A DNA stretch of 43,247 bases from contig JALHMV010000005.1 in assembly GCA_022843855.1 (NCBI GenBank), positions 1-43,247 on the forward strand, in the 5' to 3' direction. Shown one piece after another: positions 6,332 to 13,995 of this stretch. The translations under genes and the position numbers were made by a program. The notes beneath the pieces are model-generated. The model saw nothing but the letters and a program-made list of their open reading frames with translations, made no database searches and was not told the DNA's origin. This DNA is from Patescibacteria group bacterium (GTDB lineage: Bacteria; Patescibacteriota; UBA1384; 2-12-FULL-50-11). Position 1 is the stretch's first letter; each line of letters opens with the position of its first letter.

Positions 6332-7129
6332 TCAGGCCTTCATGAGGTGATCGGCGGCGCCGTAGCGAGCCGGGCCCCCGATAATGCGAGCATGGCGCTG
6401 GTTGCCGAAGTCGAAGTGCCAAATCTCCTCGGGGTAGACTGTGAAGCCACTTCCTAGCATAAACCTTAGAAGCAGTTCTCGGTTCCGCGCCACTTCCGAT
6501 TCTGGAGCGCCGGTTGGCCAATCTCGACTTCCTGGCCGGAGATGGTAGAAGGCACCGGCCTCTGGCTCCATATAGTCGAAGACCACGCCAAGATCGCACG
6601 GTTGTTCGTCGCGATACAACCAGACATCGGCTGAGCCACCCGTTCGATGGTTGGCCGGTCGGGTTGGATCCTCTGAAGGAAAGGCAACGTAGCGGGTGTT
6701 GGCCCGAATCAGATCGCTGCCCAACGTTCCGCCGAGATTGCTCAGCTTGAGCTCGACCTCGTAACGGGCACACAAGCCCTTGAATTGTTCTCCGAACCCC
6801 AGCCGCGGGGCGGTGTAACGAGCAAGATAGTACCAGAAGAGGACGTCTTGGAGCTTGTTGTCGCGATAGCCGTCGTAGAGCCTGATTGAGTAGCCTTCGG
6901 CTTGAGCTTGTTGATCGGCGTCCACTAACATGCCAAGGACGGTGCGACGAAGATGGGCTATTTTAGGACCCATACCGATTTCCGTGAGGTAGTACGGGTG
7001 AAAGAGAGTCGTCGGAACCTCCACCATTGGCTCGCCGGACTCTTTGATGACGATGTCGCTGAGTTCACAGCGCTTCTCAGCTGCTAAGGTGGTTTCGGCA
7101 GCTCGGGCGAGATCGATGACACCGGACAT
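6332..7129 (-). CDS. D-Ala-D-Ala dipeptidase, peptidase M15D (VanX/DdpX-like)
   Basis: Motifs LYDGYR, NHRTGGSADV (SxHxxGxAxD-type zinc motif) and EEIWHFDFG. Confidence 0.88.
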   Translation of the reverse strand: MSGVIDLARAAETTLAAEKRCELSDIVIKESGEPMVEVPTTLFHPYYLTEIGMGPKIAHLRRTVLGMLVDADQQAQAEGYSIRLYDGYRDNKLQDVLFWYYLARYTAPRLGFGEQFKGLCARYEVELKLSNLGGTLGSDLIRANTRYVAFPSEDPTRPANHRTGGSADVWLYRDEQPCDLGVVFDYMEPEAGAFYHLRPGSRDWPTGAPESEVARNRELLLRFMLGSGFTVYPEEIWHFDFGNQRHARIIGGPARYGAADHLMKA

Positions 7130-7204: not shown

Positions 7205-7227
7205 AAACAGGTTTGAAAGTAAAAATT

Positions 7228-8304
7228 ATGCAGAATCTCGCAATTATTTTTGGTGGTCGATCGGTTGAGCATGAAGTGTCGGTGGCTTCGGCGAAGAATA
7301 TTCTTGAATCTCTGGATCGAGCGAAATATCAACCCTCTCTTATCTTTATTGATAAGAGCGGCAACTGGCACCTGGTCGAAAATTTAAACCAAGAAGCTCT
7401 CGAACGTTCTAATGAAAAAGCACTTCTCGCGGACGTTTCTCGACCTAATTTAGCTTTTCTTGAGGGTATTGATATCGTCTTCCCGGTCCTGCACGGTCCG
7501 TTCGGAGAGGATGGCACCCTCCAAGGATTACTTGAACTTATGAATATACCTTATATCGGGTCGGGAGTCTTGGGTTCAGCTTTAGGGATAGACAAAGATA
7601 TCGCTCGACAGCTGTTAAAATTTCACAACATTCCAGTCGCCAAGTCACAGGTTATTCGACCCAGTCGCCTCCTGACATTTGAGGAAGTAAGACAAGAGCT
7701 TGGCCTGCCATTTTTCCTCAAGCCCGCCCGGCTTGGTTCGTCCATTGGCACTCACAAAGTCAAAACCGAGCCGGATTTCCACGTTGCCCTGAAGGACGCT
7801 TTTTCCTACGACAACAAGGTGCTGGTCGAAGAGTATATCGAAGGTCGAGAAATCGAGTGTGCGGTTCTGGGCAACGAGAATCCTCGCGCCTCGATTCCTG
7901 GAGAAGTTGTCCCTCACGCTGACTTTTATTCCTATGCCTCCAAATACCTTGACGCTAACGGCACCGACCTTATTGTTGATCCCGATCTAAGTGAAGAACA
8001 GGTGGAAAAAGTTCAGGCTTTAGCTGTTCAAAGCTATCAGATTCTTGACTGCGCCGGCCTAGCACGGGTTGATTTTTTCCTGAGTGGCCAGGGGGATCTC
8101 TACGTTAACGAAATAAACACCCTGCCCGGGTTTACCGCAGTTAGTATGTATCCCAAACTTTGGCAGGAAAGTGGCCTCAATTACAGAGAGCTTATTGACG
8201 AATTGGTCGAACTTGCTCTGGAGCGATTTAAGCAAAAAAGTCGACTAAAGACATCCTATCATGACCCCCTAGTTCCCGATAAAAAAGCGGCGGGGCATTT
8301 TTAA
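7228..8304 (+). CDS. ddl: D-alanine--D-alanine ligase (DdlA type)
   Basis: Motifs FGGRSVEHEVS, LHGPFGEDG, KPARLGSSIG, omega loop FYSYASKY and NEINTLPG. ATG 7228 is preferred over TTG 7213. Confidence 0.95.
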   Translation: MQNLAIIFGGRSVEHEVSVASAKNILESLDRAKYQPSLIFIDKSGNWHLVENLNQEALERSNEKALLADVSRPNLAFLEGIDIVFPVLHGPFGEDGTLQGLLELMNIPYIGSGVLGSALGIDKDIARQLLKFHNIPVAKSQVIRPSRLLTFEEVRQELGLPFFLKPARLGSSIGTHKVKTEPDFHVALKDAFSYDNKVLVEEYIEGREIECAVLGNENPRASIPGEVVPHADFYSYASKYLDANGTDLIVDPDLSEEQVEKVQALAVQSYQILDCAGLARVDFFLSGQGDLYVNEINTLPGFTAVSMYPKLWQESGLNYRELIDELVELALERFKQKSRLKTSYHDPLVPDKKAAGHF

Positions 8305-8384: not shown

Positions 8385-9209
8385 TCAAGGACTTAGCCCT
8401 GATTCTTCTGCGAGTATGAAGGCTTCGTGTCCTATGATCTGTTCTGGTCTAGGGAAGATGATACATGAGTTGGCGGGGGCGATATATTCCTTTCTCCCGT
8501 CCTTGGCGAAAACTGTTCCGGGATCGAGCTTGTCGAAATTCATATACTTCTTGTCGAAATGAAAATTATTTGTTTCCTTTTTGGCAACCATAATGGCTTT
8601 AAGGCGCAACTGTGGTAGTGGTGGCGAAGTGGTTGCTTTTTCTGCTATTCCAAAATAGGCGAGAAAACTAGTAATGGCTTCCATAGCAAATGGGACGTAC
8701 TTTTCGGGTAAATGATTAGAGCCACATTCGAGACAAATACCTATCTTGCCATTCTGATACATGTATACATCTGTCGAACCGGTTGAGACCTCGGAAAGGT
8801 TGGTTATGATTGTACCTGTGCCCAATTCTTTTACGACATCGAGTGAATTACTTTCGCATATAGCAAACGGTCGGTCTTCCTCGCCGTTATACCCATGCAG
8901 GTCCAGTAGTGCGTCACAATCATCTAGGATTAACTTCAACCCCTCGGCCAACTGTTCTTCATAGCTTGCTTTGGGAGCCAGTTGAGGGGTGAAGCATCTG
9001 TTTAAGTTTTTTTCTATAAAACGTACCCCTAATTCAATCGCTTTCGGATTGGCAAATACGAAATGCACCGTCCCTCTCTTCGGCATAAAATCTTCGATAT
9101 ATTTCCGGACCGCAATAATTCCCGCTTTTTCATTTCCATGAACACCGCAAAACACAGCGACTGATGGTCCTGGTATGTCAGAGCGGAATGTATGTATATT
9201 GTTTTGCAT
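8385..9209 (-). CDS. Succinylglutamate desuccinylase/aspartoacylase family (M14) zinc deacylase
   Basis: Motifs GVHGNE, NLNRCF, LLDLH and LECG, plus an AstE-like C-terminal segment (NF..L.PG..FA.DG). Confidence 0.88.
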   Translation of the reverse strand: MQNNIHTFRSDIPGPSVAVFCGVHGNEKAGIIAVRKYIEDFMPKRGTVHFVFANPKAIELGVRFIEKNLNRCFTPQLAPKASYEEQLAEGLKLILDDCDALLDLHGYNGEEDRPFAICESNSLDVVKELGTGTIITNLSEVSTGSTDVYMYQNGKIGICLECGSNHLPEKYVPFAMEAITSFLAYFGIAEKATTSPPLPQLRLKAIMVAKKETNNFHFDKKYMNFDKLDPGTVFAKDGRKEYIAPANSCIIFPRPEQIIGHEAFILAEESGLSP

Positions 9210-9218
9210 TTTGGGTAT

Positions 9219-9245
9219 GGCTGGTCGGGGAGTGCCTGACCAGCC
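9219..9245. other. Intercistronic stem-loop between GNAT and M14 genes
   Basis: GGCTGGTC(GGG)-gagtg-(CCT)GACCAGCC inverted repeat with no U-tract on the coding strand. Confidence 0.55.
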
Positions 9246-9247
9246 AG

Positions 9248-9898
9248 TTAGGATCGCATTCCAATGATGACATATCCGTCCCCTTTGCCGAGCTGGCGAA
9301 AGAGCTGATTGACATCATCGCTTCGGCACGAGATTGAGTCTCCATAGAGGCCATTCCCATATGCCCCCCGGACAATCAGCATCGGGGGATCACTGATTGG
9401 CTTCCCGCCAATTAGCTCAAGGACCTCCGAGGCTGTCTCGAAGATCTCCGTCGGTACTTCCTTGCCATCGACTCCGGGGTAGATTCGGTCAAAGATTCCG
9501 GTGGACCTGATGCCTTGATAGACGCGAGGATTTTGTGTCCTTACGACCATCGCCTCTGAGTCTGCGTGCAGGCACTCGCGGATAAGCCGTTTGTATAGGC
9601 CTTTTCCCTGATGGTTCGGGTCAACGATTGTCCCAACCCGATATGTGATCTTGATCCTCTCAAGGATTAGCTGGCGAATGCCGGCAAATCCTATGATTTT
9701 CTCGTTGTCATCGAAGGCTACGACCAGCTCTTGGTCGGTTTCCGGAAGGCCGAACATGTGATCGGCAGTCTCCTGACGATCGACTCCTTGAAAGACTTGG
9801 CGCACCAGATCGAAGCCACCGTCGAGAAGAGTTTCTCGGCAGTGACCAGTAATATCTGACGCGACGTAACGACGAAGATTGATGTCTGTACTGTTCAT
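9248..9898 (-). CDS. GNAT-family N-acyltransferase
   Basis: Beta strand IIGFAG and acetyl-CoA-binding motif A IVDPNHQGKGLYKRL. Confidence 0.85.
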   Translation of the reverse strand: MNSTDINLRRYVASDITGHCRETLLDGGFDLVRQVFQGVDRQETADHMFGLPETDQELVVAFDDNEKIIGFAGIRQLILERIKITYRVGTIVDPNHQGKGLYKRLIRECLHADSEAMVVRTQNPRVYQGIRSTGIFDRIYPGVDGKEVPTEIFETASEVLELIGGKPISDPPMLIVRGAYGNGLYGDSISCRSDDVNQLFRQLGKGDGYVIIGMRS

Positions 9899-9920
9899 GT
9901 CATCACCGATGTAGGGTACG

Positions 9921-9944
9921 AAAAAACGTCCGGTGACCGGACGT
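9921..9944 (-). terminator. Attenuator terminator in the GNAT leader
   Basis: Minus strand reads ACGUCCGG-UCA-CCGGACGU-UUUUU, 22 nt before the GNAT start. Confidence 0.9.
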
Positions 9945-9969
9945 CTGTGAAATTCACGACAAACCTAGG

Positions 9970-10026
9970 TCACCTGCTGGGACTTGGATTGCGCCACCAC
10001 GCGTTTGCGATGGGTGTGAATTCCAT
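9970..10026 (-). CDS. Trp-attenuator leader peptide MEFTPIANAWWRNPSPSR (TrpL-like, 18 aa)
   Basis: Hand-translated and absent from the ORF track. Tandem TGG TGG followed by Arg. Promoter lies directly upstream; terminator and antiterminator lie directly downstream. Confidence 0.88.
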   Translation of the reverse strand: MEFTPIANAWWRNPSPSR

Positions 10027-10033
10027 ACCTGGA

Positions 10034-10062
10034 ATATTAATACCCAGTGAGTAGGGTGTCAA
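10034..10062 (-). promoter_or_regulatory. Sigma70 promoter of the attenuated operon
   Basis: TTGACA-17nt-TAATAT, 7 nt before the leader peptide ATG (leaderless). Confidence 0.8.
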
Positions 10063-10105
10063 CTGTTTCTTTACGTCAAAGAAGGGGTGAGATAGTCTAA
10101 GGTCA

Positions 10106-10648
10106 ATGTTATTTCTTAAGGCTCGTCCGCGAGTCGAGCGCATTTTAGTCAGTGATGATATTTTCCATAAAGTCGCGCAGATGCGCTATCGAGTGTACTG
10201 CGAGGAAATGGGATTTCTCGAGAAGGACAAATACCCGAAGAAACTTGAGACCGATGAGTACGACGGCAGCTCGATCCATATTGCTGTACTAATTGGCCGT
10301 CGTTTGGCTGGATACGCTCGAGTGATTTTGCCGCGCAATGGGACCCTGCCGATCTTTGAGCACTTTGAGATTCCGCCGGAAGAGGATATTGACGCTTCCT
10401 GTGAGGTATCGCGTTTTATGATTTCTAAGCTTTACCGCCGTAAAACCGAGACGCGTCGGGAGATTTTCCGGCTTTTAGCCGAAGAGATATTGAAGGTTGT
10501 TGAAGAACATCAAGTGAAGAATATCTACGCAGTCGTTGAGGAGTGGCTTCTTAAGAGTCTTCACAAGCGAGGGTATATGTTCGAGGTTGTTGGCGAGGGG
10601 AAGGATTATATGGGCGCGATTACCTATCCGACGAGGCTGGAAAGATAG
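10106..10648 (+). CDS. N-acyl amino acid synthase (FeeM-like) / LuxI-fold acyltransferase
   Basis: QMRYRVYCEEMGF...LETDEYD...GYARVI...LPI...CEVSRF keeps the R, ExDxxD, R and ExSR residues of the LuxI/FeeM superfamily, but has F at the LuxI Trp position. Confidence 0.8.
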   Translation: MLFLKARPRVERILVSDDIFHKVAQMRYRVYCEEMGFLEKDKYPKKLETDEYDGSSIHIAVLIGRRLAGYARVILPRNGTLPIFEHFEIPPEEDIDASCEVSRFMISKLYRRKTETRREIFRLLAEEILKVVEEHQVKNIYAVVEEWLLKSLHKRGYMFEVVGEGKDYMGAITYPTRLER

Positions 10649-10652
10649 ATGG

Positions 10653-10991
10653 ATGGAGGGAATCAATAGCCTAGTCTCTGAAAACATCACCACCGCTAAG
10701 GGATTCGGAGTCATTTACCTCATCACATTTGTGCCAGCATGGGTAGTTGTCTTCATGATAGGGAGAGAGGTTGCTCTTCAGAGAAGCGCTAAGGATCCGC
10801 ATTCGTCAAAGGCAAGGCTACGTAGCCTGATCGCGCTAGAGATTGCAATTCTTGCAGCACCATATATTTATGCCGTTACAGTTGTGCAGAGAGTTCCGTT
10901 CTTGGTTAAAGGCCTCCTGTTCCTACTGCTAATTCTTGTCTTAGTACGTATATACAAGAAGGAAGGGCAAAAGCATCAAGATGTTTTTTAA
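10653..10991 (+). CDS. Small membrane protein (about 3 TM, 112 aa)
   Basis: ATG 4 nt after the synthase stop, three hydrophobic segments, overlaps the next gene start. Confidence 0.7.
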   Translation: MEGINSLVSENITTAKGFGVIYLITFVPAWVVVFMIGREVALQRSAKDPHSSKARLRSLIALEIAILAAPYIYAVTVVQRVPFLVKGLLFLLLILVLVRIYKKEGQKHQDVF

Positions 10992-11688
10992 GAAGTTCCT
11001 CTGGTCAATTTACTCCTTTTGTTACGACGTAATATTGTTTTCGGCACCGCACCGAGCAATGTTCAAGACCATATTGGAGAAGATAGATGGCGAGGGTTCG
11101 TCGTTAGTTCTAGATGTAGGGGCGGGAACGGGGAATCTTGAGTTTCTAGGTAGGAATAGAAGCGTTAAGTTTATTGCCACGGATTTCTCTAGGAGCATGC
11201 TAGCGATTCTTAGGCTTAAGAATCCCAACAGATCGAAAGTTGAGACAATTCTCTGGAACGTAAATTGTGAGCTGCCGGCAGGGGTGGTTCGTGTAGATGC
11301 TATTGTATGCGTTAACGTAATTTTTACGGTAACTGATCTGGAAAGATTTCTTAGGCAAATGTCAAAAACTCTTAAGGAAAGTGGGTCAATATTCATTGTT
11401 TCTCCGCGAAGCAGTTTTTCTATCAGGATGATAGCGAGTGAGCATGTCCGAATGACAATGGCTAGACCTTTCGGGATATTTATCTTGGCCATTCAGATAA
11501 TAGTTTTAGCCATCCCGTTACTGTTGCTGCTAGTGGTTAATCTACTTATCGAGACCCTTTTCTCCAGTGACCAGTACGTATATTTCTCCGAAGGAACCGT
11601 ACAGGACTTACTACAAAAACTTGGCTACTCCGTCACGGTTAACGACGTGCTAGCGGGTCAAGAATACATGGTGATCGGACGCCGCTAA
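10981..11688 (+). CDS. Class I SAM-dependent methyltransferase with a hydrophobic insertion
   Basis: Motifs VLDVGAGTG, ATDFSRSML, DAIVC and LKESG. Hydrophobic stretch IFILAIQIIVLAIPLLLLLVVNLLI. Confidence 0.88.
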   Translation: MFFKKFLWSIYSFCYDVILFSAPHRAMFKTILEKIDGEGSSLVLDVGAGTGNLEFLGRNRSVKFIATDFSRSMLAILRLKNPNRSKVETILWNVNCELPAGVVRVDAIVCVNVIFTVTDLERFLRQMSKTLKESGSIFIVSPRSSFSIRMIASEHVRMTMARPFGIFILAIQIIVLAIPLLLLLVVNLLIETLFSSDQYVYFSEGTVQDLLQKLGYSVTVNDVLAGQEYMVIGRR

Positions 11689-11712: not shown

Positions 11713-13995
11713 ATGGGAGTTGATTTAGTTGTCTTAGTGCTTTCGAGCGCCCTTGTGCTGACATTGGGAATAACTGCTGTAAGTAATAGGGGTAGTAGCG
11801 CTCATAATCTCTACTTCTTTTTGACAACGTTGTCGATCGTCTTATGGATGGTGACGAACTACGGCGCAAATTCTATTCACGCTTTCACTCTGCTAGTCAA
11901 CAAACTTACTTTTGCTTCAGTTGTTACTGCCGCCTTTTTCCTAACACTGTTTGTACTATCGTTCCCGAAACAGTCAAGTGGCCCGCCTAAGGTGATTAAA
12001 TGGGTCTTTTGCCTGGCCACCATACTCGTACTTGCAGCGGTAGTGAGTACTGATCTCATAGTCAAGAGATACCTAGAAACGCCAACGGGCACAACAATTG
12101 AAACTGGCAAAGGGTTCTGGATTTTCCTCGCATACTTTATACCCGTTATGGTTGGTGCGCTTTCTCACTTAACTTTAAAGCGGAAAGTACTGTCACAGGG
12201 GGAGAGAAAGCAGGTCGATCTGATACTTTTTGGTGTTGGCCTAACGTTCGTGGCAGGGTTAGTCATGAATCTAATTTTGCCCCTTCTCTACGATTCAACT
12301 GTTTTCCTTACCTACACTCCTTACGGAACAGTTTTTTTAGTTGGGGCGATCTTCTATGCCATGATTGCACACGATCTATTTGAGCTTAGAACCTTAGGGG
12401 CTGGCCTCCTCGCATTCGCAATCAACATCGCATTGATTGCTCAAATCTTTGTTTCAAACAGCACCAGCGAGATGGTGCTTAAGATTGGAGTTGAGCTTAT
12501 CGTAGCGATCGGAAGCTACTCCCTTGTTAAGAACATCAATAAAGAAATATCTCGCCGGGAAGAGGTGGAGCGATTGGCGAAGGAGCGTATAGAAACATTG
12601 AAGGAGCTCGAGCAACGCAACAAGAACCTGGCCGCTCTGCAGAAAGTTTCCAAAATGGTTCTCAACCAGATCGAGATGAAGCCGATGATCCAAGCGATTC
12701 TGGACGAGATTCCGAAACAGTTTGATAACTGTACCGGCGCGCTTCTTAATCTTGTCCATGGTGGCCATATGGCTGCCTACGCGATCTCGACGAACGAGTT
12801 TACCAAGAAGGTCACAAGCCTCGTCGGCGACGATCTAGAGAAATACAGCTATCCTATCAAACCCGGCTTCAACCTTTTACACGACACGCTTATTAGCAAG
12901 CAGATTAAGGAGTCGACGAAACTCAGTGACTTCATCTGCCCCCCAATCACCAAGCCGGTGGCGGCGACGATCCAGACGTTAGTCGGAATTAAGTATACTC
13001 TGGCCGTTCCGTTGTTTGCCGGCAAAGAACCGCTCGGTGTGATGCTGTTCTCCTATCGCGTTCCCAAGAGTGAGCTGCTCGAAAAAGATCTTGATATGGC
13101 TGTGGCGATTTCGGACGAAACCAGCTTGGCCATTCAGCGCGCCTACGCCTTCCAGCAGCTTAAAGATGCCAACGAGTACCTGGCTGATCTGGATAAGCTG
13201 AAAGACGAATTTATCTCGATCGCTTCCCACGAACTCAATACACCGTTGGCAGCTGTCGAAGGCTATCTGTCGATGATTCTCGATGAGAACATGGGCAAGG
13301 TCGACGACAAGGCCCGAGTGTATCTAACCCGCGCCTACGACTCGAGTAAACGATTGGCGGAGCTGATTTTGGACTTGCTCAATGTTTCTCGCATCGAACA
13401 AGGCCGAATCAAGATGAAGTTTGCCAAGACTAACCTGTACGATTTGGCAGAGAGCGTTATGCACGAGCTTCAAGTAAAAGTTGACGCCAAGAAGCTGACT
13501 CTGAAACTGGAAGGCGATCGTAAGAGAGTACCGCAGACCTGGTGCGATCCCGATCGGATCCGCGAGGTGATTGTTAACCTGGTTGGTAACGCCATCAAGT
13601 ACACAGAAAAAGGCGGTATCCGAATGCGTATCAGCGAGGATGCCGGCCGTATCAAATTTGAAGTAATCGACACCGGTCGAGGTATCTCGGCCGAGGGCCA
13701 GAAGAAACTCTTCCAAAAGTTCTCTCAAGTTAAGCGAGAGATTGACGAGCAAAAAGGAACGGGCTTAGGCCTCTACATCAGCAAAAACTTTGTCGAACTC
13801 CATAAGGGTCGGATTTGGGTTGAGTCCGAAGAGGATAAGGGATCTGACTTTATCTTTGAGCTGCCGCTCCTGACCGAACCGCCAGAGAAGATCGAAGGGG
13901 CGATCCTGGAAGGGCCGTTGTCGGCGCCGCAGATTGAGCGGCGCAACCCGCTGGAAATACCGACGGCGATCAAAGAATCGGCTAAGAAAAATTAG
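11713..13995 (+). CDS. Sensor histidine kinase: N-terminal 7TM-type membrane domain, GAF, HisKA, HATPase
   Basis: About 270-aa multi-TM N-terminus, GAF (LAVPLF...LGVM), H-box ASHELNTPL, N-box NLVGNAIKYT, DTGRGI and GTGLGL. Confidence 0.93.
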   Translation: MGVDLVVLVLSSALVLTLGITAVSNRGSSAHNLYFFLTTLSIVLWMVTNYGANSIHAFTLLVNKLTFASVVTAAFFLTLFVLSFPKQSSGPPKVIKWVFCLATILVLAAVVSTDLIVKRYLETPTGTTIETGKGFWIFLAYFIPVMVGALSHLTLKRKVLSQGERKQVDLILFGVGLTFVAGLVMNLILPLLYDSTVFLTYTPYGTVFLVGAIFYAMIAHDLFELRTLGAGLLAFAINIALIAQIFVSNSTSEMVLKIGVELIVAIGSYSLVKNINKEISRREEVERLAKERIETLKELEQRNKNLAALQKVSKMVLNQIEMKPMIQAILDEIPKQFDNCTGALLNLVHGGHMAAYAISTNEFTKKVTSLVGDDLEKYSYPIKPGFNLLHDTLISKQIKESTKLSDFICPPITKPVAATIQTLVGIKYTLAVPLFAGKEPLGVMLFSYRVPKSELLEKDLDMAVAISDETSLAIQRAYAFQQLKDANEYLADLDKLKDEFISIASHELNTPLAAVEGYLSMILDENMGKVDDKARVYLTRAYDSSKRLAELILDLLNVSRIEQGRIKMKFAKTNLYDLAESVMHELQVKVDAKKLTLKLEGDRKRVPQTWCDPDRIREVIVNLVGNAIKYTEKGGIRMRISEDAGRIKFEVIDTGRGISAEGQKKLFQKFSQVKREIDEQKGTGLGLYISKNFVELHKGRIWVESEEDKGSDFIFELPLLTEPPEKIEGAILEGPLSAPQIERRNPLEIPTAIKESAKKN

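Follow-up and report, generated by a model that had tools for sequence, protein, structure and literature searches.

A predicted tryptophan-codon attenuator precedes an acyltransferase and deacylase operon in Patescibacteria

Transcription attenuation by a translated leader peptide is a textbook mechanism for the control of amino acid biosynthesis. In the enterobacterial trpL leader, a short open reading frame (ORF) carries tandem tryptophan codons followed by an arginine codon (the Escherichia coli TrpL peptide includes WWR), four RNA segments give rise to the anti-antiterminator, the antiterminator and an intrinsic terminator, and translation of the leader stops in or near segment 2. Here we describe a leader with the same layout on the minus strand of contig JALHMV010000005.1 (positions 1 to 43,247, called “the window” below), from the metagenome-assembled genome (MAG) of a Patescibacteria group bacterium that is 855 kb in size and 95% complete. 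Unlike trpL, the window leader has no match in Rfam, is predicted to be leaderless, and would control genes for a GNAT acyltransferase and an AstE/AspA-family deacylase rather than for tryptophan biosynthesis. We place the probability at roughly 80% that this element works as a transcription attenuator of the ribosome-mediated trpL type, with charged tRNA-Trp as its signal, and controls the GNAT-deacylase operon. Every defining feature of a trpL-type attenuator that can be recognized in silico is present, and from these features we infer the transcription start site, the actual stalling of ribosomes, and the dependence on tryptophan. The regulator is of a known kind, and its regulon is novel.

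Three described systems each share part of this design. In Streptomyces, classical attenuators are located upstream of trpS (Seliverstov et al. 2005, PMC1262725). They resemble the window element in having a Trp-codon leader before a non-biosynthetic tryptophan gene, and one operon homologous to ours (locus L027) is directly upstream of genes for tRNA-Trp and trpS. They differ in that the enzymes controlled here have no assigned substrate, and in that the trpS gene of the window genome itself has no leader peptide. The attenuator of Corynebacterium glutamicum ilvBNC is leaderless, and its first hairpin includes the start region, acts as anti-antiterminator and can block initiation (PMC11857589). 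The window element shares its leaderless leader mRNA and a start-region hairpin that serves as anti-antiterminator, whereas the ilvBNC system senses branched-chain amino acids and governs a biosynthetic operon in a prototroph. Finally, the Chlamydia trpRBA operon for tryptophan salvage is controlled by TrpR and by attenuation, the latter reportedly involving YtgR (PMC7755916). The likeness lies in Trp-responsive control of salvage in a reduced genome, and one of our homologous operons (in genome G163) has a divergent gene of the TrpR family; the salvage enzymes of Chlamydia are TrpBA, however, and TrpR was not found in the window genome. A full-text literature search (supplements were outside its scope) returned no published report of an attenuator like this one from Saccharibacteria or ahead of a GNAT gene, nor of amino acid sensing by cis-acting RNA in Patescibacteria.

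The leader elements are given below by their window positions, all on the minus strand, and by nucleotide (nt) number counted from the A of the leader start codon. Sequence inspection and a promoter scan agree on a −35 hexamer, TTGACA (10057 to 10062), and a −10 hexamer, TAATAT (10034 to 10039), separated by a 17-nt spacer. The −10 hexamer ends 7 nt before an ATG at 10026 that opens an 18-codon ORF (9970 to 10026), encoding MEFTPIANAWWRNPSPSR and closed by a TGA codon (9972 to 9970). Codons 10 and 11 are tandem tryptophan codons, UGG UGG (nt 28 to 33; 9994 to 9999), which form the proposed stall site. Downstream is an intrinsic terminator (9921 to 9946) composed of a stem-loop (nt 81 to 103) and a U tract (nt 101 to 106), with the DNA sequence ACGTCCGG-TCA-CCGGACGT followed by T6 and a GC-rich stem of 8 to 10 bp. 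It ends 22 nt before the ATG of the GNAT gene (9898). A promoter, leader ORF, terminator and GNAT start codon in this order had been listed in a preliminary description of this DNA, and all of the listed elements are present in the sequence. The leader hairpin does not appear in the terminator-scan list for the window; judging by inspection, this is probably because the stem can extend into the T run, which leaves too few T residues for the rule used by the scan.

Two further helices complete the set. The anti-antiterminator pairs nt 2 to 11 (10016 to 10025) with nt 70 to 79 (9948 to 9957). The 5′ arm of the antiterminator (nt 53 to 68; 9959 to 9974) consists of GGUGACC, which holds the UGA stop, then UAG and GUUUGU, and its 3′ arm (nt 79 to 95; 9932 to 9948) overlaps the terminator 5′ arm, the terminator loop, and 2 nt of the terminator 3′ arm. 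When the free 112-nt leader is folded from the AUG, its minimum free energy (MFE) structure (−42.1 kcal/mol) contains the 10-bp helix between nt 2 to 11 and nt 70 to 79, two local hairpins, and the terminator, and the same features recur in the 15 best suboptimal folds. The terminator hairpin has a 10-bp stem in every ViennaRNA fold. The preliminary description had proposed a two-part protector helix: its first part, GGAAUUCAC with GUGAAUUUC, is this 10-bp helix, and its second, GCAAAC with GUUUGU, can form and lies outside the MFE structure.

The predicted structure switches with the portion of the leader that is masked. When nt 1 to 43, 1 to 46 or 1 to 49 are masked, as by a ribosome at UGG UGG, the MFE fold of the remainder is the antiterminator (−23.6 to −24.8 kcal/mol), which pairs nt 53 to 59 with nt 89 to 95 and nt 63 to 68 with nt 79 to 84. 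When masking extends to nt 67, 69 or 72, as by a ribosome on the UGA codon (nt 55 to 57), the terminator returns. In silico, the antiterminator thus excludes the terminator and is itself excluded by the anti-antiterminator. The antiterminator that had been proposed from GGUGACC:GGUCACC plus GUUUGU:ACAGAC exists, with a helix energy of −17.2 kcal/mol, compared with −14.8 for the terminator and −10.95 for the protector. Constraint folding likewise reproduces the trpL logic suggested at that time, in which a stall at the WW codons leads to the antiterminator and a ribosome at the stop codon to the terminator. The geometry is as follows: the last tryptophan codon ends at nt 33, the antiterminator arm begins at nt 53, and the UGA is inside this arm.

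We propose the following mechanism. Transcription would start at or beside the AUG to yield a leaderless leader mRNA. When tryptophan is plentiful, the ribosome would reach the UGA and, because this codon lies inside the antiterminator 5′ arm, would mask that arm, whereupon the terminator could form and transcription would stop. When charged tRNA-Trp is scarce, the ribosome would stall at codons 10 and 11 and cover the 5′ part of the leader, leaving nt 53 to 68 free to pair with nt 79 to 95; the terminator would then be blocked, and the GNAT and deacylase genes would be transcribed. If the leader is not translated at all, nt 2 to 11 would pair with nt 70 to 79, the antiterminator would be blocked, and termination would follow.

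Natural variation among close relatives was assessed with a genome of the same genus (G002) and with contigs from four public runs aligned on window positions 9700 to 10200. G002 is identical to the window from the leader ATG to the GNAT start, differs in the sequence of the promoter spacer, and keeps the arrangement TTGACA-17-TAACAT-7-ATG; one of the contigs (X4) carries a promoter of the G002 type. None of the public runs with this DNA is recorded as RNA, though some bear an RNA-Seq library label. Another contig (X2) represents a third strain with 22 listed differences from the window, and it also retains the TTGACA hexamer with a varied spacer. Fourteen of these changes are located in the compared part of the GNAT coding sequence (199 nt; 9700 to 9898). 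Three are in the leader ORF: U7>C (F3L), C36>U, which is a synonymous change of the Arg codon beside WW from CGC to CGU, and G50>A (S17N). Leader nt 51 to 113, which include the antiterminator and the terminator, have zero changes.

The preliminary description had also suggested that tryptophan leaders might be found upstream of homologous GNAT genes. We inspected the upstream DNA at 23 GNAT-family loci, and 12 of these have a tryptophan-containing mini-ORF and an intrinsic terminator directly before the GNAT gene, with W, WW or WWW in the peptide. The survey left out G681, whose contig ends at this point, and G415 and G361, which are weak matches. The 12 carriers, with nine distinct peptide versions, belong to three lineages: Saccharibacteria, another class of Patescibacteria, and small-genome MAGs of Gammaproteobacteria. 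For the window genome, “Saccharibacteria” is the label on its nearest deposited relative, and for G255 in the second class the labels disagree, being Candidatus Saccharibacteria in the public record and a class other than that of the window in the genome classification. The window and G002 share MEFTPIANAWWRNPSPSR; L027, whose GNAT is 44% identical to that of the window, has MESSTNHSWRTVST; and G016 has MIQLAVTNWRRHFSAFQGATADFDLD, together with an antiterminator and a terminator. Among the Gammaproteobacteria, G162 has MNRSLERNAHYPLVWWTPSD, which ends in LVWWTPSD before the stop, and G163 and G164 have MLHDCPKQKTEGLIGWWTPSS, which ends in IGWWTPSS. The second Patescibacteria class carries MLVNHSQILFSWWKGNQPLGDCPGFAVIR with WW (G255), MLFKPQTTIFAWWWNSHSFGDC with WWW (G232), MSSQQVKQLAPWRHNHQLGDCQGFAMSN with a single W (G763), and MSQQKNLTSIFAWWQGNQPFGDCQVFAISR with WW (G778 and G767).

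Tryptophan is the sole residue common to all nine leader versions. The residues after it differ across lineages (WWRNPSPSR, WRTVST, WWTPSD, WWKGNQ, WWWNSH), and arginine follows W only in leaders of the Saccharibacteria type and in G763. We rejected arginine as the sensed residue, given that T, K, Q or N follow W in other leaders. In the two leader versions from Gammaproteobacteria, the N-terminal halves show no relationship, yet length, promoter spacing and the WWTPS ending agree, as would be predicted if translation and the W codons were all that counted. AstE homologues without a GNAT gene (G005, G009 and G001) had no leader. Additional searches gave few further loci: a metagenome scan for homologous loci returned one locus, L027, a GNAT with 45% identity (P0004) was not found among the genome contigs searched, a search with the GNAT of G255 matched only itself, and the order around G162 yielded no further carriers (3 of 127 genomes).

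The switch design is also seen in relatives whose leaders differ in sequence. L027 has the architecture of the window: its 5′ end (nt 3 to 8) pairs downstream of the stop, an inner helix holds the UGG codon, and a terminator is present. When its first 35 to 39 nt are masked, the MFE fold is an antiterminator with the UAA stop inside the 5′ arm. G016 has a long antiterminator whose 5′ arm is in codons 16 to 25. In the class of G255, an alignment of five leaders contains an invariant block, UUGGUGAUUGU, that pairs with the terminator 5′ arm and loop. Over the 14 pairs of this antiterminator, 98.6% of 70 cells are paired, compared with 33 to 53% in slid-register controls; one pair is altered at both positions (CG to UA) and four at a single position. 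We regard this covariation as modest support for the antiterminator.

Because the −10 hexamer ends only 7 nt before the ATG, the window leader mRNA is predicted to be leaderless. All eight leaders examined for this feature have a −10-like hexamer that ends 7 to 9 nt before the ATG, and none shows a recognizable Shine-Dalgarno sequence. Genome-wide, −10-like hexamers peak 6 to 11 nt before the ATG of 499 long ORFs (counts of 14, 6, 15, 14, 5 and 10 versus a background of about 4), which suggests that roughly a tenth of the genes in the window genome may be leaderless. Its trpS gene (C31:1995-2963) also looks leaderless. Leaderlessness is not universal among the carriers, since G763, G778 and G767 have an apparent 5′ untranslated region of about 20 to 36 nt as read by eye. 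We also considered a 57-amino-acid (aa) extended ORF that begins at an ATG at 10143. It was rejected because this start would precede the promoter and has no counterpart in G002, which has an in-frame stop 66 nt upstream and no in-frame ATG ahead of the leader start.

Several comparisons address how often such an arrangement is expected by chance. The 135-nt fold has a z score of −2.68, with 1 of 200 shuffled sequences folding as well. Of the 7,238 ATG-initiated ORFs of 8 to 40 codons in the 855-kb genome, 39 contain WW, and just one of these 39, the leader encoding MEFTPIANAWWRNPSPSR, has a terminator with a perfect stem in the 110 nt after its stop. Tryptophan accounts for 1.17% of the proteome and for 13 of 150 codons in seven leader versions (binomial p = 3e-8), or p = 4e-5 when one leader is taken for each of five lineages; because the leaders are related and the lineages are not fully independent, these p values are optimistic.

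The genomic context of the carriers offers links to tryptophan. In G163, a Trp_repressor-family gene (PF01371, 2e-18; TIGR01321, 1.2e-14, below its cut-off) is divergent from the operon, and the upstream DNA of G162, translated by eye, appears to encode a similar TrpR-like protein. A perfect inverted repeat in G163, ATGTACTA-6-TAGTACAT (L087:5649-5670), overlaps the −10 hexamer and the start of the WW leader, and we take it to resemble TrpR operators. This repeat is a candidate TrpR operator that would provide dual control, as is known for the E. coli trp operon with its TrpR and attenuation; no such repeat was found in G162. At L027, the gene for tRNA-Trp(CCA) is directly downstream of the operon and is followed by the N-terminal part of trpS (TIGR00233, 4e-28), where the contig ends. 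No trpB gene scored over its cut-off in any of six carrier genomes (the window genome, here G000, and G016, G162, G163, G232 and G255), and trpE and TrpR were likewise not found in the window genome, although absence from a MAG is no proof. Within the 95% of the genome that is represented, these findings agree with the amino acid auxotrophy that had been supposed for this lineage. With trpB and trpE not found in an 855-kb genome, the attenuator cannot control tryptophan synthesis.

The first gene of the operon (9248 to 9898, minus strand) encodes a 216-aa GNAT acyltransferase (Pfam Acetyltransf_7 and Acetyltransf_1, both over their cut-offs), and the second, after a gap of 38 nt, encodes a 274-aa deacylase (8385 to 9209, minus strand) of the AstE/AspA family, that is, of the succinylglutamate desuccinylase and aspartoacylase type (PF24827, 3.9e-22; PF04952). 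The AlphaFold2 model of the GNAT protein has a predicted local distance difference test (pLDDT) score of 93.4 and a generic GNAT fold, with at least 500 GNAT matches by Foldseek at E ≤ 0.001. In PDB, Foldseek returned generic GNATs only (template modeling score of about 0.4 to 0.5), and a sequence search returned nothing at E ≤ 0.1. In the ESM Atlas, the protein falls among unnamed GNAT clusters, and we read its QGKG motif as a probable coenzyme A motif. The protein is rare, with 3 close relatives among 5.8 billion clusters and 166 representatives at E ≤ 0.001 among 1.84 billion; it occurs in 2 of 162 genomes of its class, 8 of 401 in a sample of the phylum, and 6 of 146 in the class of G255.

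The deacylase had previously been described as an M14 enzyme. A deacylase it is, and Pfam assigns it to the AstE/AspA family, the fold of which is presumably M14-like. Both Pfam domains score over their cut-offs and the NCBIfam equivalogs (AstE, aspartoacylase and MpaA) all score far below theirs, so the protein is best treated as a family member without an assigned substrate; sequence searches of PDB gave only distant AstE and aspartoacylase matches. Across the eight loci surveyed for the partner gene (G164, G763, G778 and G767 are left out), the partner is of the AstE/AspA type in the window, G002, L027, G016, G255 and G232, and of the M20 ArgE/DapE type in G162 and G163. This difference appears to be a non-homologous replacement that preserves the same kind of chemistry, and the association of two unrelated deacylase families with one GNAT family argues for a pathway of acylation and deacylation. 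Aminoacylases, which release the free amino acid from its N-acyl derivative, are known in both the AstE/AspA and the M20 family. For this reason, our best guess is that the operon, as a probable response to tryptophan starvation, salvages tryptophan from an N-acylated form.

Other observations concern the surroundings of the operon. In two MAGs of Nanoarchaeota (L035 and L063; DPANN), a distant GNAT homologue (31 to 33% identity) adjoins an AstE-like gene, which makes the enzyme pair older or more mobile than the bacterial attenuator. In G016, a gene for a radical SAM protein (L024:5518-6903) follows the GNAT-deacylase pair. Upstream of the window leader and divergent from its promoter is a gene on the plus strand (10106 to 10648) for a FeeM-like acyltransferase, a GNAT resembling N-acyl amino acid synthases and exosortase-associated acyltransferases. 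Since this gene is divergent, the leader terminator serves no other gene. Membership of the FeeM-like gene in the unit is not supported, because it is not beside the operon in L027, G016 or other loci, and its adjacency here is probably incidental. A gene for a class I S-adenosylmethionine methyltransferase (10981 to 11688, plus strand) is followed by one for a 7TM-GAF histidine kinase (11713 to 13995, plus strand). Just downstream of the operon, a D-Ala-D-Ala ligase gene (7213 to 8304, plus strand) adjoins a gene similar to M15 D-Ala-D-Ala dipeptidases (6332 to 7129, minus strand), for which the VanX and DdpX models score below their cut-offs.

We weighed three other explanations for the leader. 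The element might sense translation generally, responding to inhibition by a TrpRS (tryptophanyl-tRNA synthetase) inhibitor or a ribosome-targeting antibiotic from neighboring bacteria, in which case the GNAT would be an induced drug-modifying enzyme. Leader-peptide attenuators that respond to antibiotics exist, with BmrCD as a reported example (PMC4191407), and the GNAT fold is as close to aminoglycoside and phosphinothricin acetyltransferases as to any other GNAT. Moreover, a TrpRS inhibitor would exert its effect at these W codons too, and the evidence from the cis element therefore fits a drug signal and tryptophan supply alike. A general antibiotic sensor, however, would not need W in nine of nine leader versions, simple acetylation of a drug would leave the conserved deacylase partner unneeded, and the context is physiological instead (the TrpR-family gene, the tRNA-Trp and trpS neighbors, and carriers without detected trpB). 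On balance, we consider drug sensing improbable.

Alternatively, the peptide might be a sequence-specific arrest peptide similar to TnaC that senses a small molecule in the exit tunnel rather than charged tRNA-Trp. The tna system is Rho-dependent, and TnaC has a conserved peptide motif beyond its tryptophan. Here, lineages agree in W alone and diverge in what comes after it, the two leaders from Gammaproteobacteria bear no resemblance in their N-terminal halves, and, in contrast to the tna system, there is an intrinsic terminator together with an antiterminator; a TnaC-type peptide was set aside for the lack of shared residues beyond W and for the intrinsic terminator. Tryptophan is reported to be essential in TnaC too (PMC8429421), and leaders of the second Patescibacteria class have in common a stretch of peptide that follows the W codons and terminates in GDC. 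This GDC block is at the same place as the antiterminator arm UUGGUGAUUGU, such that RNA pairing explains its conservation, and we judge an arrest peptide very unlikely. The mini-ORF could also be a product of chance, with the hairpin acting as a constitutive or a protein- or ligand-controlled terminator, or with the short transcript acting as a functional small RNA. The frame is indeed open upstream to the ATG at 10143, giving a 57-aa ORF, promoter-like hexamers alone are not enriched (8 found versus 9.7 expected), and released attenuator RNAs can act in trans, as is reported for rnTrpL (PMC6614838). This last explanation is the least credible of those weighed: the tryptophan ORF recurs in nine sequence-distinct leaders with conserved spacing from promoter to ATG, the 57-aa form is not conserved in G002, no other gene needs the terminator because the upstream gene is divergent, and the leader lacks a match in Rfam. 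Specifically, Rfam models (including Trp_leader and T-box) gave no match at E ≤ 10 in window positions 9000 to 11000 or at E ≤ 1 in seven homologous loci. A T-box riboswitch sensing tRNA-Trp was ruled out on this basis, and the leader of a trp biosynthetic operon was ruled out because the downstream genes encode the GNAT and the deacylase and because trpB and trpE were not found.

A number of observations count against a trpL-type attenuator at these loci. Strain X2 has U7>C in the leader, which creates a C·A mismatch in the middle of the 5′ helix without a compensating change, and this weighs against strict conservation of that helix. The footprint of a ribosome stalled at WW may just miss nt 2 to 11, in which case a further ribosome, queued behind it, may be required to keep the 5′ helix from forming. 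The stem covariation anticipated in the preliminary description is realized only in part: beside the high pairing and the single two-sided change noted above for the G255 class, the evidence is thin, as a column-shuffle control on the five sequences falls short of significance (156 of 500) and one member of the alignment itself supplied the structure. In the Gammaproteobacteria leaders, the terminator (16 to 17 bp) always prevails thermodynamically and greatly exceeds in stability every antiterminator (−18 to −20 kcal/mol prior to synthesis of segment 4); one of −18.3 kcal/mol can form only as long as segment 4 has yet to be transcribed. These leaders fit by a kinetic argument only and are the weaker case. 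Eleven of the 23 inspected loci have no W leader, namely G204, G180 and G308, and, in the 330 nt upstream read by eye, an Uhrbacteria MAG, Arenimonas, Frateuria and five archaeal loci. Three of the nine leader versions (L027, G016 and G763) have a single W, which is weaker than the classical tandem codons. Finally, the co-induction of a GNAT with a deacylase is unexplained, including in the salvage scheme.

Attenuation by charged tRNA-Trp nevertheless remains our preferred reading, and it has consequences for the biology of these organisms. The broader proposal is that the GNAT-deacylase pair is an unrecognized tryptophan-starvation module, likely for salvage of N-acylated or otherwise masked tryptophan, that is common to Trp-auxotrophic, reduced-genome members of unrelated phyla (Patescibacteria and small-genome Gammaproteobacteria). 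Its W leaders would be the wiring everywhere, with TrpR added in Gammaproteobacteria, and the deacylase would have been swapped non-homologously, with both the GNAT and the W leader retained. We hold the arguments for and against this proposal to be evenly balanced. If it is true, the attenuator would serve as a marker from which a physiological role can be given to two enzyme families without assigned substrates. The label “induced when tRNA-Trp is uncharged” would narrow the substrate search for the GNAT and the deacylase to tryptophan derivatives, and the Gammaproteobacteria MAG operon flanked by a TrpR-family gene is an independent cross-check. The element would also be a concrete example of amino acid sensing by a cis-acting RNA in the candidate phyla radiation (CPR), or Patescibacteria. 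It would mean that episymbiotic CPR bacteria sense and answer a shortage of a single amino acid, and it could throw light on the way in which tryptophan derived from the host is acquired or spared by obligate episymbionts.

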